NCBI GenBank assembly: GCA_035438225.1
Contig: DAORHY010000002.1
Location: 1-40,186, forward strand
Direction: 5' to 3'
Source of the DNA: Bacteroidia bacterium
GTDB lineage: Bacteria > Bacteroidota > Bacteroidia > AKYH767-A > 2013-40CM-41-45
DNA length: 40,186 nucleotides
Positions 3,873-37,527 of this stretch are shown here, piece after piece. Made by a program: the position numbers and the translations under genes. The notes below the pieces were generated by a model. That model searched no databases. It was given only the letters and a program-made list of their open reading frames with translations, and was not told where the DNA came from. Numbering within the stretch: position 1 is the stretch's first letter; every line of letters starts with the position of its first letter.

Positions 3873-4270
3873 CGGTTATTCGTTTAATTTTATCTGTAAA
3901 GATGTGCAAACAGTTGGGGAATAGAATGAAATTGACAAATTCTGCCTTTATTAAAGGAAAATACGAGGTTTCTGCAGTTTAATAACCGAACAAATCAGAG
4001 ATCCGAGAAAGCCGGACAACGATGCACGTAAAAAAATCTCCGTACAGATCACCCAAAACAGGACTTTTGAAAAGCTCTTGAATGAACACGCACGAAGGAG
4101 TTTATCCGGTCTGCTCCGGATCCAATTTACGGTTTTAAACCAAGCTAAATTTGCATTTTTCCATGTCCCGTAAAAATATCTTTCCGGAGTCTTTGCTTTG
4201 TTCATTTAACTTTGCAATTTGGCTTCAGGATTTGTTCCCTCATCCCGCTTCCACAATCAACCAAAAACAA

Positions 4271-6319
4271 ATGAAAAAAAACCTACGCTGCATTGTTAGT
4301 GCATTCTTCCTGCTTCTCCTTGGCTCTGGTATTTCCCATGCACAGGTAGCAGCTCTTCCGTTTACAGCATCGCTGGATACGTTCAACGTAATCACCGGCA
4401 CCACACTCGATGCTCCGGGTGTTGACGATGTGGTATATCAGGGGATTCCCATCGGCTTTACTTTTAATCATGCAGGAACACCGCATGATTACATGTCGGT
4501 GAACACCAACGGTTATGTTGAACTGGACTCAACAGGTACGAATGCATTTTATACAATCCTTAGTGGTGCAAGAAACAACATCGTTGCTCCTTTCGGCGCT
4601 GACCTGAAAAATTCAAATGCGAACGCAAGCCTGCAGTACGTCACCATCGGTACGGCCCCGAACCGTATTACAATTGTTCAATGGCTGCACTACTCCTACT
4701 TCGTCGGGAACGGCGATGTAAATATCCAGCTGTGGCTATTTGAGACTTCCAATTGTATTAAGTTTATCTATGGGAATAATTCGCTCGTGAACAATCCCCT
4801 CAACACACAAATCGGAATGCGTGGCACCACCAATGCCGACTTCATTGCACTTGGTGACACTGTTTGTAACTGGGCGAATGCTTACCCATATCCAAGCATC
4901 ACGACAATGTTTCCTGTGAGCCTGTCTTGCAATATGCCTTCCGGTTTTGCTTTTCATTTTGGGCCTTGCGTCGGAACAGGAAGTGTGAACTTCTCCTACC
5001 TTACCGGAACCGTGTTCAATGATGTCAATGGTAACGGTTCCAGGGATACGTTGGAACCGGGAATACCCAATCGTGTGGTGAACCTGCTCCCCGGGAACTA
5101 TTTTGTGTCTACGGATGCCGGCGGGAATTACGCCTTCTTCTATCTTGATTCGACGCTCACCTATACCCTTTCAACTGGTGGAATTTTATACTGGGTCCAA
5201 ACGACTACACCGGCCGTGTTATCCTGTAACCCTCAGACCCAATCTGGTTCCGGACTGAATTTTGGATTTCAGCAAATCCCGAATGTGCATGAAGTTTCCG
5301 TGACCTGTCCGAACTGGGGCGCTAAACCCGGACAACCCGAGCCGATGCCCATATCTTTCCAGAACAACGGCACGGCAACAGAAAGTGACACCATTACTTT
5401 TGTAATGGATTCGCTTTACACCTTTATCAGTTCAAACCCTGCTCCGGCTGCCCAAAACGGACAAACAATACAATGGGCGTATTCAAACCTCGCTCCCGGA
5501 CAACACAACTCAATCATGCTCTACCTGTTGCCGGATTCATCAGCAGTACTCGGGAATTATCTCAACTCCACGCTATCCATCGGGCCTTCGAATGACACGG
5601 TTCCTGCCAACAATGTGGTGAATCTGCATCAGCTCATCACTCTGGCCTGGGATCCCAACGAAAAACTTGCTGAACCATCCGGAGAAATCGATGCTGGTAC
5701 TGAAATTAATTACACCATACATTTCCAAAATACAGGGAACGCAACGGCCGACAATGTAACTGTGTACGATACACTCGATGCCGGGCTGGATCTTCTTTCC
5801 TTCCGGCTGACCGGTTCTTCGCATACTGTTAACTTTACCATGGAAGGAAATGGTGTGGCACGATTCACATTCTACAACATTCAACTTCCTGACAGCGGTG
5901 CTGATCTGGTGCGCAGCAACGGGTATGTGAGCTTCGCCATCCGGACGCTTCCCAACCTTCCGCAAAGCACATCCATCACTAACCGTGCAGGTATTGTGTT
6001 CGACTGGAATCCCCCGGTAATGACCAACACAACACAGAATAGTATCAGGATCAGTACAGGACTGAATGCATCTGCTGTCCAGACCTTTTTGATTAAGGCA
6101 TCGCCAAACCCCGCCTTGGCAAACGTTGTGTTTGAGTTCCCTCAGAAATCACATGAACCGGCTACGCTGAATATTCATAGCATTGATGGCAAAACTGTGA
6201 TGATCCGCAACATCTTCAGCGGAGAAAGTACCGACCTTGGGTTCCTTCCTTCCGGAATTTATCTCTGTACCATCACAACGGCTAACAGCTCTTCGCTTGT
6301 AAAACTGATAAAAGAGTAG
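4271..6319 (+). CDS. T9SS-secreted surface protein with DUF11/DUF7619-like repeat domains (683 aa from ATG 4271)
   Basis: An internal ATG at 4271 gives the signal peptide MKKNLRCIVSAFFLLLLGSGISHAQ, whereas the ORF-track start at 4151 has none. It carries a LAWDPNEK motif. The C-terminus (ASPNPA...LNIHSIDGKTV...GIYLCTITT...VKLIKE) is a T9SS type-A sorting domain. Confidence 0.8.
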   Translation: MKKNLRCIVSAFFLLLLGSGISHAQVAALPFTASLDTFNVITGTTLDAPGVDDVVYQGIPIGFTFNHAGTPHDYMSVNTNGYVELDSTGTNAFYTILSGARNNIVAPFGADLKNSNANASLQYVTIGTAPNRITIVQWLHYSYFVGNGDVNIQLWLFETSNCIKFIYGNNSLVNNPLNTQIGMRGTTNADFIALGDTVCNWANAYPYPSITTMFPVSLSCNMPSGFAFHFGPCVGTGSVNFSYLTGTVFNDVNGNGSRDTLEPGIPNRVVNLLPGNYFVSTDAGGNYAFFYLDSTLTYTLSTGGILYWVQTTTPAVLSCNPQTQSGSGLNFGFQQIPNVHEVSVTCPNWGAKPGQPEPMPISFQNNGTATESDTITFVMDSLYTFISSNPAPAAQNGQTIQWAYSNLAPGQHNSIMLYLLPDSSAVLGNYLNSTLSIGPSNDTVPANNVVNLHQLITLAWDPNEKLAEPSGEIDAGTEINYTIHFQNTGNATADNVTVYDTLDAGLDLLSFRLTGSSHTVNFTMEGNGVARFTFYNIQLPDSGADLVRSNGYVSFAIRTLPNLPQSTSITNRAGIVFDWNPPVMTNTTQNSIRISTGLNASAVQTFLIKASPNPALANVVFEFPQKSHEPATLNIHSIDGKTVMIRNIFSGESTDLGFLPSGIYLCTITTANSSSLVKLIKE

Positions 6320-23555: not shown

Positions 23556-25625
23556 ATGAAAAAATCACTACTTGCTCTCGCATTGTCCCTCACCATTGGC
23601 TGGACAGCAAATGGGCAAGAACGAAAAACCTGTGTAACGGACGAAGTGTACCGGGAAACAATCCAAAAGCATCCGGAACTCCTGTTGCAGCAACAGGAAC
23701 TGGAACAATTTACGTCCCGCTTTGTGCAGGAAAACAAAACTCAGCGGACAGCAGGCGGAGGTATCGCATATGTCATTCCCGTTGTATTCCACATCATTCA
23801 TAATTATGGCCCGGAAAATATTTCCGATGCACAGGTGATCGATGCTGTCAGGGTGATGAACCTCGACTACAGTAAACTGAATGCGGACACCACCGCAATT
23901 GTTCCTTCTTTTCAAGGCATCGCTGCGAATTGTCAGATTGAATTCCGCCTCGCCAACATAGATCCCCAGGGAAATTGCACCAATGGCATCGACCGCGTGG
24001 TTTCTTCGCTCACCATGAATGCCGACGATAATGCAAAATTAAATCCATGGCCCTATCAGAATTACCTGAATATCTGGGTCATCAATACCTTCTCTTCTTC
24101 TCATTCCGGCGCTGCGGCGTATGCGTATTACCCCGGTGCGGCTTTCCCTGCAAATAAAGACGGCGTTATCGCCCGCTATGATTATGTGGGCAGTATCGGC
24201 GCCAGCAGTCCGAACAACTCACGCACACTCACGCACGAAGCCGGACATTGCCTGAATCTTGCTCATCCCTGGGGAAGCACCAATCAACCGGGTGTTGCCT
24301 GCGGCGGAACAGATAACGTTTCCGATACACCGGAAACACAAGGCTGGACATCCTGCAACCTTAGCGGCTCAGTGTGTAATCCTCCTGTGATTGAAAACGT
24401 TCAAAACTTTATGGAGTATTCTTACTGTGATGTAATGTTCACAGAAGGCCAGAAGGCACGTATGCATGCTGCACTCAACTCTTCCGTTGGCTCCCGCAAT
24501 AACCTGTGGTCACTTGGAAACCTCACTGCAACAGGAACGGATGGCTCCCCAACACAAGTGTGTATTCCAAATACCGACTTTGAAGCTGACGAGATCACTG
24601 TCTGTGCTGGTGCCACTGTTAACTTCCACGATCTGTGCTGGAACGGTGATCCTACGTCCTGGTCCTGGGATTTTCCGGGAGGAACACCGTCCACATCCAC
24701 GGATTCTTTTCCTGCTGTCGTTTACAACACGGCAGGTACGTATGATGTCACCCTCACCGCTTCCAATTCTGCAGGCTCCAGTTCTTTCACACGGACTGCT
24801 TACGTTCGTGTTTCCGGGCCGCCTTCTCAGGTGATTCCGTTTACCGAAAGCTTTGAAGTGCCCGCATCCTTCCCGGGGACAGATGGTTATGTCATCAATC
24901 CCGACAACGGGACAACCTGGACGCGCGTGACAACCGCCGCCAGTTCCGGCACGGCTTCCATCCGAATTAACAATTACACCAATACCAGCGGACAAGTGGA
25001 CCAGTGGATCACACCTGCTTTTGATTTTTCGAATGTGACCTTGCCTACGATGCATTTCACCGTGGCAAATGCTCAGCGAAACAGCGGCTCTGCCGACGAA
25101 CTCCGTGTTGCAGGATCCAATAACTGCGGACGCACCTGGAATTACCGGTACACCAAGTCCGGCGCCACACTGGCAACAGCCGGGATTGTCAGTACTTCCT
25201 TCACCCCGAATGCTAGTCAGTGGAGACAGGAAACTGCGAACCTGAATCCCTTTGCCCTGAAACCAAATGTCCGTTTCATGTTCGAAAACACCAGCGACAG
25301 GGGAAACAACACCTACATTGATTCCATCTTCATCACCGGAACATTTGTCGGCCTGGATGAGGTGGATGAAATCGAACTTGGTTTTGCATTGTACCCGAAT
25401 CCCAGTGCAGGAAAAACCACCGTTCAGTTCCTGCTCAATCAGGCACAAAAAGTTCAACTGGATGTCGTAGACATTACCGGACGTCTCGTTTCCTCTCTGG
25501 CAAACGACGACCTGAATGCCGGTCTGCACGAATACACGATTTCCATTCAGAATCCCGGAATTTATTTCGTGGACCTTGTTTCCGGCGGAAAACGCCACGT
25601 AAGGAAACTAATCATCTCCGAATAA
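23556..25625 (+). CDS. T9SS-secreted M43 (pappalysin-like) zinc metalloprotease with PKD and MAM-like domains, copy 1
   Basis: It has a signal peptide and the zinc motif HEAGHCLNLAH. A PKD-like segment follows (GATVNFHDLCWNGDPTSWSWDFPGGTPSTS...GTYDVTLTASN). The C-terminal LYPNPSAGKTTVQF...GIYFVDLVSGGKRHVRKLIISE is a T9SS sorting domain. Confidence 0.85.
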   Translation: MKKSLLALALSLTIGWTANGQERKTCVTDEVYRETIQKHPELLLQQQELEQFTSRFVQENKTQRTAGGGIAYVIPVVFHIIHNYGPENISDAQVIDAVRVMNLDYSKLNADTTAIVPSFQGIAANCQIEFRLANIDPQGNCTNGIDRVVSSLTMNADDNAKLNPWPYQNYLNIWVINTFSSSHSGAAAYAYYPGAAFPANKDGVIARYDYVGSIGASSPNNSRTLTHEAGHCLNLAHPWGSTNQPGVACGGTDNVSDTPETQGWTSCNLSGSVCNPPVIENVQNFMEYSYCDVMFTEGQKARMHAALNSSVGSRNNLWSLGNLTATGTDGSPTQVCIPNTDFEADEITVCAGATVNFHDLCWNGDPTSWSWDFPGGTPSTSTDSFPAVVYNTAGTYDVTLTASNSAGSSSFTRTAYVRVSGPPSQVIPFTESFEVPASFPGTDGYVINPDNGTTWTRVTTAASSGTASIRINNYTNTSGQVDQWITPAFDFSNVTLPTMHFTVANAQRNSGSADELRVAGSNNCGRTWNYRYTKSGATLATAGIVSTSFTPNASQWRQETANLNPFALKPNVRFMFENTSDRGNNTYIDSIFITGTFVGLDEVDEIELGFALYPNPSAGKTTVQFLLNQAQKVQLDVVDITGRLVSSLANDDLNAGLHEYTISIQNPGIYFVDLVSGGKRHVRKLIISE

Positions 25626-25645
25626 TAATCCAGTCTTCATTAATG

Positions 25646-25678
25646 AAAAAGCCCTCCCTGATTCGGAGGGCTTTTTTG
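25646..25678 (+). terminator. Rho-independent terminator between the two M43 paralogs
   Basis: The sequence is aaaaa-gccctcc-ctgattc-ggagggc-tttttt. Confidence 0.7.
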
Positions 25679-25833
25679 TTTAGAAACGGCGATTCCTGTC
25701 CACCAATAGCGTTTAAAGAATACGAAAATACACCCGATTGCTCCGGGGAGAAATTCAAAATATCTCTATCTTTGAAATCCCTGGTTTCTGCCCGGAAACA
25801 CCTGTCATTGATTCCCAAAATTTAGTATCAATC

Positions 25834-27897
25834 ATGAATGTATTAAGGCTTGCTCTTGTATTGTTTCTTTTGCTAAATTATACGACAAGAGGCCAGGAGC
25901 TGAAAACCTGTGCTACCACTGAAGTGTATAAGGAAGCTGTTAAAAAGCATCCGGAGATTTTAATGCAGCAGCAGGAACTGGAACAATTCACTGCACGGTA
26001 TGAACAGGAACACCGGAATCAACGTTCCGGCGGCGGCATTGCTTATGTCATACCGGTTGTGTTTCACATAGTACACAATTATGGACCTGAAAATATTTCC
26101 GATGAACAGGTATACGATGCCATCCGCGTGCTGAATGAAGATTACAGCAAACAAAATGCGGATACTACCATGATCGTTCCCTCTTTCCTGGGAATTGCAG
26201 GAAACAGCCAGATAGAATTCCGCCTGGCCAACAAGGATCCGCAGGGAAATTGTACAAATGGCATTGACCGCGTTGTATCCCCGCTCACCATGAGTGCAGA
26301 TGATGGTGCAAAATTAAATCCATGGCCCTACCAGAATTACCTGAATATCTGGGTCATCAATTCATTTGCCGGACCCATGGCGGGTGCAGCTGCATATGCT
26401 TATTATCCGGGCACAGCTTTTCCAACAAACGTAGACGGCATAATTTCGCTCTATAGTTATGTCGGTAGTATCGGCGCAAGTACCCTCAACAGATCCCGCG
26501 TCCTTACACACGAAGTCGGACATTATCTGAATCTTGCGCACGTCTGGGGAAGCACCAATCAACCGGGAGTTGCCTGCGGTGACGACGGCGTTTCCGATAC
26601 GCCCGAGACGAAGGGTTGGGTCAGTTGCAGCCTCAATGGCGCGGTCTGCAATCCTCCGATCGTTGAGAATGTTCAGAATTACATGGAATATTCCTATTGC
26701 GGCGTGATGTTCACTCAGGGACAGAAAACCCGCATGCATGCCGCTCTGAATTCATCCGCCGGTTCCCGATCCAGCTTGTGGACACAGGGCAACCTGACTG
26801 CAACAGGTACAGATGGTTTTTCTGCCCAGGTGTGCATTCCGAACACAGACTTTACTGCCGATGAAAATACCATCTGCACAGGAGCTACTGTTAACTTCCA
26901 CGATCTGTGCTGGAACGGCGACCCTACGGCCTGGTCCTGGGATTTTCCGGGAGGAACACCATCCACATCCACGGATTCTTTTCCAGCTGTTGTTTACAAC
27001 ACGGCAGGTACGTATGATGTCACCCTCACCGCTTCCAATTCTACAGGCTCCAGTTCTTTCACACGGACTGCTTATGTTCGTGTTTCGGGTACGCCATCGC
27101 AGAGTATTCCTTTCTCTGAAAGTTTTGAAGTACCTGCATCCTTCCCGGGGACGGACGGATATATTCTTAACCCGGACAACGGAGCAACCTGGACCCGTGT
27201 CACAACTGCCGCCAGTTCCGGTACTTCATCCATTCGCATGAACAACTATTCGAATAGCAGCGGACAGATTGACAAATGGTTCATGCCGCCAATGGATTTT
27301 TCAAATGTCACACAGCCAACCATGACTTTCAAAGTGGCGAATGCCCAACGCAACAGTTCTTCCGGTGATGAATTGCGGATCGCAGGTTCAATGAATTGCG
27401 GGCATACCTGGAATTATCGTTTCAGCAAATCCGGCGCTGTTCTGTCCACGGCGGGGATTGTGAGTACTGCTTTCACTCCGAATTCAAGTCAATGGCGACT
27501 GGAGCCTGTCACTCTGAATCCCTTTGCACTGAAACCCAACGTCCGTCTGATGTTTGAAAATATCAGCGACGGTGGTAACAATACGTATATTGATGAAATC
27601 AACATCAACGGCACACTCGTTGGTGTTGATGAAGTAGAAGATATCCAACTTGGATTTGCGTTGTACCCAAATCCGGCTGCTGGGCACACAACCGTTCAGT
27701 TCCTGCTCACAAAGAATCAGCATGTCCAAGTGGATGTAACCGATATCACCGGCCACCTCGTCTCCAGTGTGCTGAACGGAGATTTAAACAGCGGATTACA
27801 TGAGTACAAAATTTCAATTAACAGTCCGGGGATTTATTTCGTGGACCTTGTTTCCGGTGGCCGGCGTCATGTACGCAAATTGATCATCTCCGGGTGA
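25834..27897 (+). CDS. T9SS-secreted M43 zinc metalloprotease with PKD and MAM-like domains, copy 2 (tandem paralog)
   Basis: ATG 25834 gives the signal peptide MNVLRLALVLFLLLNYTTRGQ. The zinc motif is HEVGHYLNLAH. The protein is colinear with copy 1 over its whole length and has the same T9SS C-terminus (GIYFVDLVSGGRRHVRKLIISG). Confidence 0.85.
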   Translation: MNVLRLALVLFLLLNYTTRGQELKTCATTEVYKEAVKKHPEILMQQQELEQFTARYEQEHRNQRSGGGIAYVIPVVFHIVHNYGPENISDEQVYDAIRVLNEDYSKQNADTTMIVPSFLGIAGNSQIEFRLANKDPQGNCTNGIDRVVSPLTMSADDGAKLNPWPYQNYLNIWVINSFAGPMAGAAAYAYYPGTAFPTNVDGIISLYSYVGSIGASTLNRSRVLTHEVGHYLNLAHVWGSTNQPGVACGDDGVSDTPETKGWVSCSLNGAVCNPPIVENVQNYMEYSYCGVMFTQGQKTRMHAALNSSAGSRSSLWTQGNLTATGTDGFSAQVCIPNTDFTADENTICTGATVNFHDLCWNGDPTAWSWDFPGGTPSTSTDSFPAVVYNTAGTYDVTLTASNSTGSSSFTRTAYVRVSGTPSQSIPFSESFEVPASFPGTDGYILNPDNGATWTRVTTAASSGTSSIRMNNYSNSSGQIDKWFMPPMDFSNVTQPTMTFKVANAQRNSSSGDELRIAGSMNCGHTWNYRFSKSGAVLSTAGIVSTAFTPNSSQWRLEPVTLNPFALKPNVRLMFENISDGGNNTYIDEININGTLVGVDEVEDIQLGFALYPNPAAGHTTVQFLLTKNQHVQVDVTDITGHLVSSVLNGDLNSGLHEYKISINSPGIYFVDLVSGGRRHVRKLIISG

Positions 27898-28889: not shown

Positions 28890-29291
28890 ATGGAAACACC
28901 CGATATTCTACACATTGCAAGAAAATTATTAGCAGATTTAGCAGACGGTAAATCCGGCGCTGAACTTGCAAACTACTTCAGTCCGGCAGTTCGGCAAATT
29001 GAATACCCGAATATGCTCAATGTGCATGGCGGGATCAGCGATATCAAAACGATCATGGATCGCGCAGACAAAGGAAAACAAATTGTTGCCAGCCAGAGTT
29101 ATGATATCCAACGTGAATTCGTATCCGGAAATACAGTAATCTTTGAAGTGGTATGGAGAGGTGTTTTTACTTTACCGGTCGGAAAAACTCCCGCCGGCGA
29201 AGAAATAAAAGCCTTCTTCGCCCTGTTTATGGAATTCGAAAACGGGAAAATTGTTGTTCAACGGAATTATGATTGTTTCGCGGAATTTTGA
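28890..29291 (+). CDS. NTF2-like / SnoaL-like fold protein (133 aa)
   Basis: The size and pattern (GNTVIFEVVWRGVFTLP...FALFMEFENGKIVVQRNYDCF) are typical of the SnoaL/ester-cyclase-like NTF2 superfamily. Confidence 0.65.
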   Translation: METPDILHIARKLLADLADGKSGAELANYFSPAVRQIEYPNMLNVHGGISDIKTIMDRADKGKQIVASQSYDIQREFVSGNTVIFEVVWRGVFTLPVGKTPAGEEIKAFFALFMEFENGKIVVQRNYDCFAEF

Positions 29292-29438
29292 GAGTGAAGA
29301 GTGAATGGTGAAGAGTAGATAGCATTGATTTTAGCATTACAAATTACTATTACATATTACAATTCATTTCATCCCTGTCTGTCAGATGAAATCTTTTTAA
29401 TAACTATTTACTCTTCACCAATCACTATTCACTATTCA
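29292..29438. repeat. 147-bp heptamer-periodic element with imperfect ~28-bp inverted termini, filling the whole gap between convergent genes
   Basis: The left end is gagtgaa gagtgaa tggtgaa gagtaga. The right end is atttact cttcacc aatcact attcact attc, which is the reverse complement with about 4 mismatches. The interior also has 7-bp periodicity (gcattac aaattac tattaca tattaca). The right end abuts the polA stop codon. Confidence 0.55.
29365..29397 (+). terminator. Hairpin plus T-run inside the repeat element (candidate terminator for the NTF2-like gene)
   Basis: An 8-bp stem pairs atttcatc (29365-29372) with gatgaaat (29385-29392), followed by cttttt. Confidence 0.45.
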
Positions 29439-32288
29439 TCAATGTGCTTCGAGCCAGTTCTCGCCGGAGCCTACGCCCACTTCAACAGGGACGTTCAGCG
29501 TTAACGCATGTTTCATGTGATTCCCAACCAACTCTTTTAATTCATTGAGTTCCGATTTGTACGCATCAAAGACCAATTCATCATGCACCTGCAGCAGCAT
29601 TTTTGATTTCATGTTTCGCTTTTTCATTTCCTGGTGAATCCGGATCATTGCAATTTTAATCATGTCGGCAGCGCTGCCTTGTATCGGTGCATTGATGGCG
29701 TTACGTTCAGCGAAACCTCTTACTGTTGCATTCGCAGAATTGATGTCGCGTAAATAGCGGCGGCGCCCGAGAATTGTTTCTACAAATCCCTTCTTGCGGG
29801 CATTTTCAATACTCATATCCATGTATTCTTTAATGGCAGGATATTGCATGAAATAGTTATCGATAATTCCCTTTGCTTCTGTCCTCGAAATATTCAGGCG
29901 ATCGGCCAGTCCGAAAGCAGAAATACCGTAGATGATGCCGAAGTTCACCATCTTGGCGTTGCGGCGCATGTCACCGGTAACTTCATGGATCGGAACATTG
30001 TAAACTTTGGATGCGGTTGCAGCATGGATATCTTCCCCGCTGCGGAATGCTTCCAGCATACCGGGATCACCGCTCAATTCGGCGATGATGCGCAATTCGA
30101 TCTGTGAATAATCGGCAGAAAGTAAAGTGTACGCGCTGTTCCGCGGAATGAAGGCTTTACGAATTTCTCTTCCCCGCTCTGTCCGGATAGGAATATTCTG
30201 AAGATTGGGGTTGTCGGAACTCAACCGTCCGGTGACGGCGACCACCTGGTTATACGAAGTATGAATCCTTCCAGTCGCAGGATTGACAAGATCCGGCAAG
30301 ACATCCACATACGTATTTTTCAGCTTCACCAGCTCACGGTAATCCAGAATTCGGCGAACCATCGGATGTTTGTTTTCGAGTTTACTCAACACGTCTTCCG
30401 CTGTGGAATATTGTCCGGTCTTGGTTTTCGTGGGTTTCTCGACAATTTTCAATTCTTCAAAAAGCACTTCGCCAACCTGCTTTGGAGAAGAAACATTAAA
30501 TTTCTTCCCGGCCATGTCCTGAATTTCCTTTTCAATTTTATTGATGTCAGTTTCAAGGACCGAGGAAAAGTCCCGCAGCGCTTTGATGTCGATGTTTATT
30601 CCCTCCGCTTCCATGTCCGCAAGTACGGGCACCAATGGCATTTCAACTTCTTCAAACAATTTTGTAGTTCCGGTAGATTGTAATTTGGGAGCGAACACGG
30701 TGTACAACTGGTAGGTAACATCTGCATCTTCCGCGGCGTACTCGGCCACCTGTTCAACAGGGACATCACGCATGTTTTTTTGCTCTTTTCCTCTTTTACC
30801 GATAAGGCTCTCAATTGAAACCGGGGCATAATTCAAATACGTTTCCGCGAGTACGTCCATACTGTGGCGCATTTCGGGGCGAATGAGAAAATGGGCAATC
30901 ATCGTATCGAACAATACTCCCTTTAATTCCACACCGTAGCGTTTCAAAACCGACAAATCGTATTTCAGATTTTGTGCAATTTTCACAATTGACTCGTTGG
31001 CGAAAACAGTTTTGAATTCATCCACGATGGCCTGTGCTTCCAGGTGATTAACAGGAACAGGAACATAGTAGCCCTCGTGTGAAGCCCAGGAGAATGACAT
31101 CCCAACCAGTTCCGCTTTGTATGCATCCAGTCCTGTTGTTTCGGTATCAAAACAAATATTTTTCTGACCGATCAATTTGTTTACAAGCTCTTCCCGTTTC
31201 GCCTTAGTATCACAGAGATGATACACGTGTTGTACATCCGCGATGGTCTGATGAATCGCATCTTCCGGATGAGACGGCTCGGGCTCAGTGATCACTTCCG
31301 GTTCTGTATCAAACAAATTTCCCTGTGAAGTAGCAGCTGATTTCTTCTTTGGTATTTGCAAAGGTGCTGTTGTCGCTACGCCCGCCTTTGTTTCTTCGTG
31401 TACCGGATTACCGGTAAGCCCCATTTGTTCCGCAAGCCGGCGAAATTCCAGTTCGGTAAATAATTCCCTCAGTGCTTCACGGTTGGGTTCAACTGCTATA
31501 AGATCATCGGGCTTTTCCCTGACCGGCACATCGGTGATGATCGTAGCGAGACGCTTTGATTGAATCGCTTTATCCTTATTGTTCTCAACCTTTTCTTTTA
31601 ATTTTCCTTTCAGTTGATCCGTATTCTGCAGCAGGTTTTCGATAGATCCGAATTGCTTTACCAATTGCATCGCCGTCTTTTCGCCCACTCCAGGAATCCC
31701 GGGGATATTGTCAACGCTGTCGCCCATCAGACCCAGAATATCTTTCACCTGATCCACACGCTCAATTTCCCAGCGCTGACAAATCTCCGCCACACCCAGC
31801 ACTTCTGCGCCATTTCCGGCCCGCGCCGGTTTATAAATGAATGTGTGTTCATCCACCAGCTGTCCGTAATCTTTATCCGGTGTCATCATGTACGTATCGA
31901 ACCCCTCCTTTTCCGCTTGCATTGCCAACGTTCCAATTACGTCATCCGCCTCAAAACCATCCATTGCGATCACAGGAATGTTAAACGCTTCGCATAATTT
32001 TACAACAACAGGAATGGAGGCCGCCAGATCTTCAGGAATCTCCTGACGGTGTGCTTTGTATTCGGCAAATTCTTCGTGACGCGAGGTCGGGGCGGCCGTA
32101 TCAAAAACTACTGCGATGTGCGTGGGCTTTTCTTTCTTCAACACATCCAGCAGGGTATTGGTAAAACCAAAAATGGCCGATGTATTCTGGCCTTTACTGT
32201 TGATCCGGTGATTGTTGCTGAATGCGAAATAAGCGCGATAAATGAGCGCCATGGCATCGAGAAGAAATAATTTTTTAGGAGCTGGCAT
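29439..32288 (-). CDS. polA: DNA polymerase I
   Basis: The 949-aa protein has an N-terminal 5'-3' exonuclease (LLDAMALIYRAYFA), a 3'-5' exonuclease domain (CFDTETTGLD), and polymerase motifs (DYSQIELR, RRNAKMVNFGIIYG, QVHDELVF). Confidence 0.97.
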   Translation of the reverse strand: MPAPKKLFLLDAMALIYRAYFAFSNNHRINSKGQNTSAIFGFTNTLLDVLKKEKPTHIAVVFDTAAPTSRHEEFAEYKAHRQEIPEDLAASIPVVVKLCEAFNIPVIAMDGFEADDVIGTLAMQAEKEGFDTYMMTPDKDYGQLVDEHTFIYKPARAGNGAEVLGVAEICQRWEIERVDQVKDILGLMGDSVDNIPGIPGVGEKTAMQLVKQFGSIENLLQNTDQLKGKLKEKVENNKDKAIQSKRLATIITDVPVREKPDDLIAVEPNREALRELFTELEFRRLAEQMGLTGNPVHEETKAGVATTAPLQIPKKKSAATSQGNLFDTEPEVITEPEPSHPEDAIHQTIADVQHVYHLCDTKAKREELVNKLIGQKNICFDTETTGLDAYKAELVGMSFSWASHEGYYVPVPVNHLEAQAIVDEFKTVFANESIVKIAQNLKYDLSVLKRYGVELKGVLFDTMIAHFLIRPEMRHSMDVLAETYLNYAPVSIESLIGKRGKEQKNMRDVPVEQVAEYAAEDADVTYQLYTVFAPKLQSTGTTKLFEEVEMPLVPVLADMEAEGINIDIKALRDFSSVLETDINKIEKEIQDMAGKKFNVSSPKQVGEVLFEELKIVEKPTKTKTGQYSTAEDVLSKLENKHPMVRRILDYRELVKLKNTYVDVLPDLVNPATGRIHTSYNQVVAVTGRLSSDNPNLQNIPIRTERGREIRKAFIPRNSAYTLLSADYSQIELRIIAELSGDPGMLEAFRSGEDIHAATASKVYNVPIHEVTGDMRRNAKMVNFGIIYGISAFGLADRLNISRTEAKGIIDNYFMQYPAIKEYMDMSIENARKKGFVETILGRRRYLRDINSANATVRGFAERNAINAPIQGSAADMIKIAMIRIHQEMKKRNMKSKMLLQVHDELVFDAYKSELNELKELVGNHMKHALTLNVPVEVGVGSGENWLEAH

Positions 32289-34863: not shown

Positions 34864-35041
34864 AAAATATATTGGGAGAGCCTAAAGGTAAGGAGTGTGA
34901 AGTAAGGGAAAAAATAAATTCGCAGCTGGACAGACGTTCAATTTTCCGGTGTTTTACCGGTATTCTCGTGTTTCACCACCCGCAACCTGTCTCTTCCTGA
35001 AAAATTCTTACCGGTTTTTCAGGACAAGACACCGTTTTATA

Positions 35042-35248
35042 TTAAGGGCACTTCTAATAACCTATTCTGGGTGATGTGCTTTGATGTTTTTTTGCAAGAC
35101 GAGGCCTGAGGAAGGATGATACTGAAGCTAAGTATCAGACTGACGAACAACGAAGTATTGTAAAAAAAGATCAAGCACCGAAAGCTGATGATAGAAATTG
35201 TGACCTAAATTAACAGCACCCGGAAGAGGTTATTAGAGGTGCCCTTAA
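35042..35248. repeat. 207-bp imperfect palindrome with 22-bp terminal inverted repeats (a MITE-like element or a long structured RNA)
   Basis: Positions 35042-35063 (ttaagggcacttctaataacct) pair with 35227-35248 (aggttattagaggtgcccttaa) at 21 Watson-Crick pairs plus one T-G pair. Further inner helices are 35065-35073/35217-35225, 35076-35097/35158-35178 and the apical 35117-35123/35131-35137. Confidence 0.7.
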
Positions 35249-35688
35249 ATGTTTCGCGGATTAATTTGTCTGAAATTCCCCGGTAAAGCAAATGCCCTTC
35301 GGTCAATTCCTGCTGCATCAACAAGGTTGAACTTCTTCATTCTTTGAACGCCGATATACTGTGCCATCTGATCTTTACCTGCCGTAAGACAGGCGTTCAA
35401 AATTGCCTCCGCCTGCAGTTTCTGTTCGTCAGTACCCATCTCTGCAATCTTGTTTACTGCAGTACATCCCTCACGGCAAACTTCCTTGCGGCTTGATAAA
35501 CTATGAAGCCTTAACTCCGCTTTCCCGGGACTTTCACCATTGGGTTTCTTATTTGAAAGAACTATATTTACCAGTCGGGGGACACACAGTACATCTGCAT
35601 TAAGTAGGATTTCGTACTCCGTAGACGGTTTTATGATAGCAGAAAGTTTTTGCTCCGTATAAACAATACTGATAATAATTCCGCCCAT
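35245..35688 (-). CDS. Hypothetical protein, no family recognised (147 aa from ATG 35688; the ORF track extends to TTG 35727)
   Basis: It is a long ORF in an otherwise gene-free region, so it is not a shadow of another gene. It is divergent from mrr with about 56 bp between start codons. Its stop codon (35245-35247) lies inside the right arm of the palindrome. Confidence 0.5.
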   Translation of the reverse strand: MGGIIISIVYTEQKLSAIIKPSTEYEILLNADVLCVPRLVNIVLSNKKPNGESPGKAELRLHSLSSRKEVCREGCTAVNKIAEMGTDEQKLQAEAILNACLTAGKDQMAQYIGVQRMKKFNLVDAAGIDRRAFALPGNFRQINPRNI

Positions 35689-35744
35689 CGCATATCTGCA
35701 TAACGTTATTTGTAACCTTTGAAGCAAACAACAAAGAAAAAAAT

Positions 35745-36656
35745 ATGATTCCGGACTATCAATCCATAATGTTGCCTTTGCTTGAACACATTTCGGACGG
35801 CAAAGAGCATAAAATGCGTAAAATTACTGACGACCTTGCTATTAAGTTTGGTGTTACCGAAGAAGAACTAAAAGAAATGTTACCAAGCGGGGCAGCACCT
35901 GTATTTTACAATAGGACCGCTTGGGCAAAAACATATTTAAAAAAGGCAGGTTTAATCGATAGCCCAAAACAAGGAATTGTAATTATTTCAAAACGGGGGC
36001 TTGAAGTTTTAAGGAAAAAACCAAGTTCAATTAATGTGAAGTTTCTAAAACAATTTTCTGAATTCTTAGAGTTTCAATCCACCAAACGAGACAATGAAAA
36101 TGATTCAGAAACTACCGAAGAACAATCATTTCAAACACCTGAGGAGCTATTAGAAACAGCTTATCAAAAAATTAGAAAATCGCTAGCATCTGAACTCGTA
36201 AACAAAGTGGTTAACTTGTCGCCAGCATTTTTTGAAAAACTAGTTGTCGAACTTTTGGTGAAAATGGGTTACGGCGGTTCAATTAAAGATGCCGGGAAAG
36301 CAATGGGTAAAAGCGGTGACGAAGGAATTGACGGCACAATAAAAGAAGACAAACTTGGGCTTGATATTATTTATATCCAAGCTAAGCGTTGGAAACCAGG
36401 AAATGTTGTTGGCAGACCAGAACTTCAAAAATTTGTTGGTGCATTAGCTGGACAAGGTGCTAAAAAAGGCATTTTCATCACTACGTCAAATTTCACAAAG
36501 GAAGCAATCGAATATACACCACGAAACGAAACAAAAATTGTATTAATTGATGGAGATCAATTAGCTCAACTTATGATTGACTACAATCTTGGTTGCACTC
36601 CACAGCAGACATATGAAGTTAAAAAAATCGACAGCGACTATTTTGGAGAAGAATAA
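35745..36656 (+). CDS. mrr: Mrr-type restriction endonuclease (Mrr_N winged-helix + Mrr_cat nuclease)
   Basis: The N-terminus MIPDYQSIMLPLLEHISDGKEHKMRKITDDLAIKFGVTEEELKEMLPSG...FYNRTAWAKTYLKKAGLI is typical of Mrr_N. The C-terminal PD-(D/E)xK-like core is GDEGIDG...DIIYIQAKRW...GIFITTS. Confidence 0.85.
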   Translation: MIPDYQSIMLPLLEHISDGKEHKMRKITDDLAIKFGVTEEELKEMLPSGAAPVFYNRTAWAKTYLKKAGLIDSPKQGIVIISKRGLEVLRKKPSSINVKFLKQFSEFLEFQSTKRDNENDSETTEEQSFQTPEELLETAYQKIRKSLASELVNKVVNLSPAFFEKLVVELLVKMGYGGSIKDAGKAMGKSGDEGIDGTIKEDKLGLDIIYIQAKRWKPGNVVGRPELQKFVGALAGQGAKKGIFITTSNFTKEAIEYTPRNETKIVLIDGDQLAQLMIDYNLGCTPQQTYEVKKIDSDYFGEE

Positions 36657-37002
36657 ATGAATTTGGAACTGAAAGACTTATAAATTATATCAATTGGCCT
36701 GCTCGGTTGGACAAGGAGAGTTATTCCGTTTATTCTAACTCGAAAAAAAACGCTGTACCTTATCCGCTTCCATTCACTAATTAACTTATTGCACGCTTCG
36801 ATGAATATTCGTCGAAGCATGAGCTACCGCCCATTCGACTCCAAATCCACCCGTTCTCCTGGCCGGAAGAGATTCCCAACCCGATCAGATTTTTTCGTTT
36901 CCGTTCCGTCGTTTACCGGCTGCCGGTTCCTTTGACTTGCATGTGCACGATCTTAATAGTAGCGTTGTATTATTGCCAACTTCTCCTTCAAAAAACAACG
37001 CA

Positions 37003-37052
37003 GACCGGCGGGCATTGGAATGGATGTTGAAGTCCATGTAGGACCGGCGGGC
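37003..37052 (+). repeat. Two copies of the 11-mer GACCGGCGGGC, 39 nt apart, in the sugE leader
   Basis: The copies lie at 37003-37013 and 37042-37052. The nucleotides following the two copies include complementary pentamers (ttgga / tccaa context: attGGAAtgg vs gTTCCAtt). A T6 run follows at 37059-37064, about 72 nt upstream of the sugE ATG. Confidence 0.4.
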
Positions 37053-37135
37053 GTTCCATTTTTTACATAATCTTTTTGATTGCCCCGATTCATTCATCCA
37101 CAAATAATTCCCATCTTCCCGAAAAAATCAGCGCA

Positions 37136-37462
37136 ATGAATTGGACACTCCTCATCATCGCCGGGCTTTTCGAAACCGGTTTTGCTACCTGCCTCGGTAA
37201 AGCAAAAGAAACAAGCGGTGCTGCCGCAGGCTGGTGGTGGAGCGGGTTTTTCCTGTGCCTGGGTGTAAGTATGTTTCTGCTTTACAAAGCAACGCAAACA
37301 TTACCCATCGGAACGGCGTATGCGGTATGGACAGGTATCGGCGCTGTTGGCACCGTATTGGTCGGGATTTTTTTATTCAAAGAACCGGTAGATTTCTGGC
37401 GAATGTTTTTTCTGTCAACATTAATCGCTTCAATTCTCGGATTAAAAATCGTTTCCGCTTAA
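37136..37462 (+). CDS. sugE: SMR-family exporter, SugE/Gdx subtype (guanidinium / quaternary ammonium efflux)
   Basis: The 108-aa protein has 4 TM segments and the conserved membrane Glu in MNWTLLIIAGLFETGFA. The motif LPIGTAYAVWTGIGAVGTVLVGIFLFKEP is typical of SugE. ATG 37136 is preferred over the ORF-track start. Confidence 0.9.
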   Translation: MNWTLLIIAGLFETGFATCLGKAKETSGAAAGWWWSGFFLCLGVSMFLLYKATQTLPIGTAYAVWTGIGAVGTVLVGIFLFKEPVDFWRMFFLSTLIASILGLKIVSA

Positions 37463-37527
37463 TCGTGCCAAGGGGTGGATGAAAAATATACTCCGGTCAG
37501 TGCTTACAAAAAAAAATGCAGGCGCTA

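Follow-up and report, generated by a model that had tools for sequence, protein, structure and literature searches.

A long hairpin between a TonB-dependent receptor gene and mrr in a Bacteroidia contig is probably a non-autonomous element of an IS5-family clade

What kind of object is the long hairpin that lies between a TonB-dependent receptor gene and mrr in a Bacteroidia genome, a structured RNA that serves its neighbours or a piece of mobile DNA? The hairpin occupies positions 35042-35248 of the stretch analysed here, positions 1 to 40,186 of contig DAORHY010000002.1 (Bacteroidia bacterium, assembly GCA_035438225.1), and this whole stretch of 40,186 nucleotides (nt) is referred to as the window. 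An earlier reading made from the letters of the DNA (the sequence-only reading) had drawn attention to the hairpin and had offered several candidates for it: a miniature inverted-repeat transposable element (MITE), a cis-antisense or terminator RNA, and an RNA component of whatever the neighbouring genes do. From comparison with other genomes we conclude that the hairpin is probably a non-autonomous MITE of the clade of IS5-family insertion sequences (ISs) nearest IS1168/IS1169, and not a locus-specific RNA, and we put the probability of this reading at roughly 0.9. The MITE family is apparently uncatalogued and the object itself is of an ordinary kind. The aspects that are not routine are the occurrence of an identical terminus over at least six phyla and the presence of a conserved, oriented hairpin module.

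Ends, copies and parent insertion sequences

The limits of the element are given by its flanks. The tetranucleotide TTAA stands directly outside GGGCAC…GTGCCC on both sides, and the element proper is therefore placed at 35046-35244, a length of 199 bp (Table 1). The terminal 22-mer has only two sites in the window, where 0.00 are expected by chance. Its core is a 17-nt inverted repeat that becomes 22 nt when the TTAA and one further pair are counted, with one T.G position. Barring a private C-to-T change at position 35052, the left terminal repeat is the same as the IS end that lies beside the transposase stop codon in two full-length elements described below (L044 and L104), and it is also the terminus seen in more than 118 contigs.

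These contigs were found with a 19-nt terminus probe, AAGGGCACYTCTAATAACC, which was run over the genome collection; more than 118 contigs are among the matches listed, and the terminus occurs in at least six phyla. The sequence beyond the probe is unrelated between loci and the sequence inward of it is conserved within each clade, so the terminus is where a mobile element begins or ends. With a few mismatches allowed in the partner end, about 48 pairs of ends enclosed 34-270 bp, and two pairs enclosed full-length ISs, one of 1303 bp in L044 (Nitrospira) and one of 1331 bp in L104 (a Bacteroidetes metagenome-assembled genome, MAG). The open reading frames (ORFs) of these two ISs, of 355 and 346 amino acids (aa) respectively, both match Pfam DUF772 and DDE_Tnp_1 and score 245 and 285 bits against NCBIfam IS5_4 (NF033581; cutoff 140). 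Additionally, transposase fragments abut the terminus in L006 (Ruminococcus) and L082 (Chryseobacterium), which are partial elements. The closest named ISs are IS1168/IS1169 from Bacteroides, with about 53% amino-acid identity, and the left end of IS1168 (GGGGACTTCTATAAATT) matches the terminus at 12 of 17 positions. The 17-19 nt of the terminus stay the same in ISs whose transposases are down to 54-57% identity.

The two ends of these ISs differ slightly. The left inverted repeat (IRL, …CTAAAAACTC) lies 5' of the transposase gene and the right inverted repeat (IRR, …CTAATAACC) lies 3' of it. The window element has the IRR type at both ends, with 17-19 nt identical to the IRR end of L044 and L104, and the end of IS1168 appears to be of this type as well. 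L104, L044 and L006 are counted as relatives of the IS1168/IS1169-type ISs. Five other MITEs of the family (L107, L076, L020, L050 and L090) have one IRL-type and one IRR-type end, and these look like internal-deletion derivatives of an IS. A perfect 4-bp direct repeat flanks 23 of 48 family elements, whereas permutation of the flanks (5000 trials) gives 6.9 on average and never more than 16. The duplicated tetranucleotides are TTAA, TAAA, TTTA, TTAT or ATAA, and an AT-rich duplication of 4 bp is a feature that the window element shares with the ISs of this group. Unlike these ISs, the window element is only 199 bp long and non-coding, has the IRR end twice and carries an inner hairpin module.

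Copies of the window's subfamily are found elsewhere. The subfamily has 11 further members of 181-199 bp, nine of which measure 198-199 bp, and their flanks are unrelated. Two copies with about 97% identity to that of the window lie on separate contigs of the activated-sludge MAG JADKKE01. A 16-mer scan of metagenome contigs returned 118 matches, most of them due to chance and nine with termini. Contigs that encode an identical Mrr or TonB-dependent receptor protein end 31-32 nt inside the right and left element ends, and contigs with an identical receptor or Mrr either carry the element or stop within it. Because k-mer assemblers break at repeats, contig ends of this kind are a repeat signature. 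Among the candidates of the sequence-only reading the MITE was thus the correct one, as there are copies at many unrelated sites and a TTAA duplication.

A route by which the element could have reached the window is suggested by what is generally known of IS5-family DDE transposases. Such a transposase, supplied in trans, would bind both termini and excise the element. Insertion would take place at AT-rich tetranucleotides of the TWWA type through a 4-bp staggered cut, the repair of which would yield the 4-bp duplication. In the window, the insertion would have come to lie beside the remnant of a truncated group II intron, within the variable islet that separates the TonB-dependent receptor gene from mrr. 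The hairpin would be long because the element has two inverted ends and an internal module, and not because the locus needs an RNA.

Several points weigh against this assignment. Transposition itself is deduced from sequence. No empty site was found: the 24-mer predicted for it (left flank, TTAA and right flank) had 0 matches in the metagenome contigs, and the nearest relatives, with a receptor that is 75-85% identical, carry unrelated DNA upstream of the receptor gene, too diverged for a comparison of the site. A transposase gene of this IS5 clade was not found within the 40-kb window, and a perfect duplication is kept in only about half of the family elements. Finally, the inner module is absent from the full-length ISs examined, so these ISs do not account for its origin.

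Two groups of known elements invite comparison. The bcr1 elements of the Bacillus cereus group and the Correia elements of Neisseria are bacterial MITEs with a conserved predicted RNA fold. Like them, the window element is a short repeat that encodes nothing, ends in inverted repeats and has a short AT-rich duplication at its flanks; it is also intergenic and multi-copy and forms a long whole-element hairpin with compensatory changes in its stems. The sequences are unrelated, however, and the transposase family of the bcr1 and Correia elements differs or is unknown. The window family also spans at least six phyla with identical termini, and its conserved part is an asymmetric internal loop and not the stems. 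Transcription and processing are documented for bcr1 and Correia elements. The Tourist-type MITEs of eukaryotes are moved by PIF/Harbinger transposases, which are relatives of IS5. They resemble the window element as non-autonomous elements of a few hundred bp, with an IS5-like DDE transposase in trans and TA-rich targets (TTA/TAA), but Tourist elements have 3-bp duplications, eukaryotic hosts and no sequence similarity to the window element. We know of no Tourist counterpart of the conserved hairpin module.

Other loci that carry the terminus were also noted. The 161-bp MITEs of Francisella (L076, 2686-2846; L107, 2133-2293 and 5160-5320) have one IRL-type and one IRR-type end and fold 19-30 kcal/mol better on the IRL-to-IRR strand; the copy at L107 5160-5320 has 6 G.T and 0 A.C positions on that strand, an asymmetry far above that of the window element. 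At L019, L071, L102, L105, L108, L109, L113 and other loci of Campylobacterota the terminus is followed by about 14 conserved bases (…ACC CTAGATGCTCATAA) and then by unrelated sequence, and the partner end is absent within the 8 kb examined; these could be solo ends, truncated copies or the ends of far larger elements. Locus L004 of a deltaproteobacterial MAG has at 3926-5417 a gene for a 326-aa Y1 (IS200-like) transposase with a DnaA-C-like helix-turn-helix; on one side of the gene is a degenerate site that resembles the terminus, and on the other is a 174-bp MITE of the window's family. This arrangement is probably a coincidence.

Table 1. Features of the hairpin element, its parts and its surroundings, in window positions
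Feature	Position	Strand	Remark
Left target-site duplication copy, TTAA	35042-35045	none	abuts GGGCAC
MITE body, 199 bp, non-coding	35046-35244	none	no ORF of at least 50 aa inside
Left terminal inverted repeat, GGGCACTTCTAATAACC	35046-35062	+	matches the IS end by the transposase stop codon, apart from T35052
Outer stem, left strand past the terminal repeat	35063-35079	+	partner about 35211-35227
Conserved hairpin module (stem, asymmetric internal loop, stem, second loop, apical stem-loop)	35080-35173	+	covariance model R1, 97 bits
Internal loop, 5' strand, AGACGAGG	35097-35104	+	invariant in 12 seeds from three phyla
Internal loop, 3' strand, AACGAAGTAT	35149-35158	+	conserved opposite AGACGAGG
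Variable 38-nt segment (the 'insertion' in the 3' arm of the sequence-only reading)	35179-35216	+	least conserved; columns 133-170 of the subfamily alignment
Right terminal inverted repeat, GGGCACCTCTAATAACC on the - strand	35228-35244	-	
Right target-site duplication copy, TTAA	35245-35248	none	also the stop codon of the probably spurious - strand ORF
Orphan ORF, 160 aa (147 from ATG)	35245-35727	-	overlies the intron remnant; stop codon from the TTAA duplication
Group II intron remnant, domains I-III	35288-35480	-	outside the MITE; Rfam RF02001, 48.9 bits (gathering score 32)
Subfamily copies			L115, L060, L069, L028, L127, L137, L194, L195, L205, L210, L234

The conserved inner hairpin module

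The alignment of the subfamily shows that its members are not equally conserved along their length. Conservation is higher in the inner region than in the outer stems and lowest in the 38-nt segment. In the outer stem, pairs in columns 21-30/172-181 are preserved by double substitutions in L069, L028 and L127. The conserved region is a 94-nt hairpin module that is common to MITEs of Flavobacteriales, Saprospiraceae, Spirochaetota and Campylobacterota, in which the stems differ and the two strands of the internal loop are invariant, with AGACGAG(G) opposite (C)AACGAAG(T)AT. A covariance model, R1, was built from 12 seed sequences of three phyla. It found 30 modules at E<1e-5 in MITEs of Bacteroidota, Spirochaetota and Campylobacterota, and weaker matches in further Sulfurovum and in one element of a Pseudomonadales MAG.

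The stems of the module change in a coordinated manner. In 28 distinct modules, 92.7% of the cells are paired, compared with 30-46% when the partners are slid, and the double-change cells number 146, compared with 12-28. The covariation score is 0.70 against 0.04-0.12 in the controls, a value reached by 0 of 500 shuffles. The sequence-only reading had proposed a test for covariation, and the stems of the module do covary beyond the controls. The same reading had described the hairpin as something other than a plain palindrome, and this stands for an unexpected reason: no part of the element is better conserved across phyla than the purine-rich loop, and covariation is seen in the stems that border it.

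Is the module more than a by-product of how such elements arise? The element could be a plain MITE in which selection acts on the termini only, so that the inner hairpin would be an accident and its covariation would come from independent births of elements or from arm-to-arm conversion. Both termini are of the IRR type, as fold-back of one end predicts, and long-hairpin MITEs are common. A strand-neutral count of G.U and A.C positions is balanced and the element shows no orientation bias (see below), and the module is missing from sister MITEs of Nitrospirales, a deltaproteobacterial MAG and Kapaibacterium and from the epsilonproteobacterial L050. The MITEs of Francisella reach only 14.5 bits against R1, which is not significant. 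The internal loop is hard to reconcile with such an origin, however. The loop-1 region is 91% identical in the 28 distinct sequences, compared with 58-62% for the paired columns, whose changes are compensatory. The loop strands AGACGAGG and AACGAAGTAT are not mutually complementary, and fold-back of one IS end therefore cannot have made them. Additionally, MITEs from three phyla have the module in common although their stems differ, its direction is constant relative to the nearer terminus, 50-90 nt inside, and in one Saprospiraceae element (L114) it has undergone amplification as part of a 148-bp unit. We regard an explanation by selection on the termini only as less likely than not.

The amplified element is a composite MITE of 690 bp (L114, 4133-4822) from a Saprospiraceae MAG, with TTAA on both sides. 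Its interior contains a 41-bp unit repeated 5.4 times and the 148-bp module-bearing unit repeated 2.8 times.

The inner hairpin may well be under selection as a folded single strand, and for this we hold the odds to be somewhat better than even. Covariation fits RNA and folded DNA alike, so a preference for RNA can only be weak; we lean weakly towards a module that acts as RNA on co-transcription rather than as DNA. We infer that any benefit would lie in the persistence of the element rather than in the neighbouring genes. A more specific proposal is tentative, and we would sooner expect it to fail than to hold: the module may be an undescribed structured motif that rides on IS5-clade MITEs of Bacteroidota, Spirochaetota and Campylobacterota, with a loop core of C-G, tandem G.A and G-C, which would work as RNA or as folded single-stranded DNA and could bind a conserved host or transposon factor. 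If this is true, the module might control the processing or stability of a transcript or modulate transposition, and selection would act on the cargo of a MITE, beyond the MITE ends. A functional module would make this family a case of a MITE that carries selected structured cargo across phyla.

The module was also compared with known motifs and families. A scan against Rfam had been proposed by the sequence-only reading, and the window hairpin fits no curated RNA family. In Rfam 15 it has no match at the gathering threshold and only microRNA and small nucleolar RNA (snoRNA) noise at E 0.3-6 in a search extended to E<=10, and 14 sister loci gave no match. The second loop (35098-35145) contains GGAUGAUAC … CUGA, which is box C/D-like and explains the marginal snoRNA match at E = 5.7, as well as AAGGAUGA, which resembles a CsrA-type GGA motif. 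Both likenesses are taken to be coincidences. A canonical k-turn or loop-E in the module loop was rejected, as the registers misfit when compared by eye. An association with viruses was rejected as well. The 22 matches to the loop signature in viral contigs are close to the estimated chance number, and the sole viral match that passes the covariance model is weak, has no terminus nearby and is apparently in coding sequence.

Fold, strand and the remaining explanations

The pairing that the sequence-only reading described is borne out in the window copy. The strands 35042-35063 and 35227-35248 form 21 Watson-Crick pairs and one T.G, and the second helix (35065-35073 with 35217-35225) has eight Watson-Crick pairs and one T.G. 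The third helix (35076-35097 with 35158-35178) has 19 Watson-Crick pairs and one G.T, together with one G.G mismatch and one bulged T. The apical stem (35117-35123 with 35131-35137) has seven Watson-Crick pairs and a loop of 7 nt. The 38-nt extra segment is present as described, as are the two purine-rich loop strands, each of which begins with GAC, and the stop codon of the ORF at 35245-35727 (- strand) lies inside the right terminus. Folded as RNA, the + strand reaches -87.5 kcal/mol (z = -12.7), which is far beyond chance, and the - strand reaches -67.3 kcal/mol (z = -8.7).

This difference of 20 kcal/mol in favour of the + strand is one argument for a locus-specific structured RNA transcribed from that strand. 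Such an RNA could be a small RNA, a partner of mrr or a cis-antisense transcript of the 147-aa ORF, and its shape would be maintained by selection under which G-U pairs are tolerated. In the genome collection, each of the five subfamily members likewise folds more stably in this orientation. The sequence-only reading had taken G-U pairs that are possible on the + strand only as a sign of a selected RNA, and the three wobbles in the main helices are indeed G.U on that strand. When the helices are picked on that strand, the subfamily alignment has about 10 wobble sites against 3 A.C sites, and the module alignment, restricted to helices picked in the same way, has 19 G.U cells against 4 A.C cells, at 8 sites against 3.

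The strand argument is weakened by further counts. It rests on three positions, and three purine.purine mismatches break the pairing on either strand. Of the 12 aligned copies, 8 have C-G where the window copy has the wobble 35052/35238, and the closest relative, L115, is one of these; T35052 is therefore a private C-to-T change of the window copy. In a strand-neutral count, in which each element is aligned to its own reverse complement, the module-bearing elements have 51 G.T against 47 A.C positions. The orientation of the elements relative to their flanking genes has no significant bias either (17 vs 8 upstream and 13 vs 11 downstream). Given the balanced count, the lack of an orientation bias and the private change, selection on the RNA strand is treated as unproven.

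The distribution of the element counts more directly against a product of this locus. It occurs at no fewer than 11 unrelated loci, and neither mrr nor the orphan ORF was found beside any other element locus. The sequence-only reading had itself held that many copies scattered with no gene association would speak for a plain MITE and against a locus-specific RNA, and this is the pattern seen in the more than 118 terminus contigs and the 11 copies. The window element also has transposon termini and a TTAA duplication and fits no Rfam family, and its supposed antisense target has no homologue and lies over an intron remnant. We consider a locus-specific RNA very improbable.

An intrinsic, possibly bidirectional, terminator or an insulator between the divergent receptor gene and mrr is equally improbable. 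The intergenic hairpin is very stable, and MITEs are sometimes co-opted in this manner. However, a scan for terminators and sigma-70 promoters gave nothing relevant at the hairpin: no terminator-like site was called there, and neither arm is followed by a U-tract. The hairpin is 5' of both divergent genes and downstream of none, and the other copies sit in every orientation to their neighbours.

Least probable of all is that the hairpin serves as domain IV in a group II intron that lacks an ORF and is read on the - strand, in which it would replace the reverse transcriptase (RT) ORF between domains III and V; the Rfam family group-II-D1D4-3 does match from 35480 to 35288 (- strand) and stops 40 nt short of the hairpin, and the Chondrinema RT gene starts about 290 nt past the shared segment, which is the place of the hairpin here, but this explanation was rejected because no domain V/VI was found (the 182 nt downstream fold no better than shuffles, z = -1.0), the hairpin folds worse on the - strand, the copies L115 and L069 and 12 other loci have no group II signal nearby, and the intact TTAA duplication marks a simple insertion.

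The receptor-mrr interval and other repeated DNA

The MITE lies upstream of both of its flanking genes, the TonB-dependent receptor gene and mrr, which diverge. The group II intron remnant next to it probably reaches to about 35588. It has homologues about 290 nt upstream of ltrA on a plasmid of Chondrinema litorale and in repeated segments of Persicobacter replicons. An RT gene or domain V/VI was not found after the intron segment in the window, where a search extended to E<=10 gave no match to RF00029, and the segment is therefore read as a truncated intron remnant. The orphan ORF on the same strand has no match in Pfam or NCBIfam and no homologue but itself among 5.8 billion proteins. Because it has no homologue, overlaps the intron and ends in the MITE duplication, it is probably no gene, and a spurious gene call is the most likely explanation.

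The genes upstream of the receptor differ between relatives. In L266-L269 the receptor is 75-85% identical and polA is syntenic, and the genes upstream encode DUF3089 and DinB_2 proteins, or a DUF1361 protein. The same position in the window (34864-37500) holds the MITE, the intron remnant, mrr and a small multidrug resistance (SMR) transporter gene. These differences indicate that the receptor-mrr interval is a variable islet. The islet adjoins a gene for an fn3 protein with a type IX secretion system (T9SS) tail.

For the annotation of the window this analysis removes one candidate regulatory RNA and one candidate gene, the 147-aa ORF, and it points to the DNA between the receptor gene and mrr as a variable islet in which mobile DNA gathers. 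It also documents a MITE family with an IS5-clade terminus in at least six phyla, and copies of this kind break metagenome assemblies.

Two other repeats were noticed in the window. A second long hairpin, at 29285-29440, lies directly 3' of polA. It has two 30-nt arms, at 29293-29322 and 29404-29433, with 90% complementarity, and it folds at -49.9 kcal/mol (z = -7.1); its termini are unrelated to the IS5 type, and it could be another MITE or a terminator. Additionally, two adjoining stretches of about 2.27 kb at 23754-26888 are 69-78% identical (direct repeats D1-D3), which suggests a tandem paralogous gene pair.

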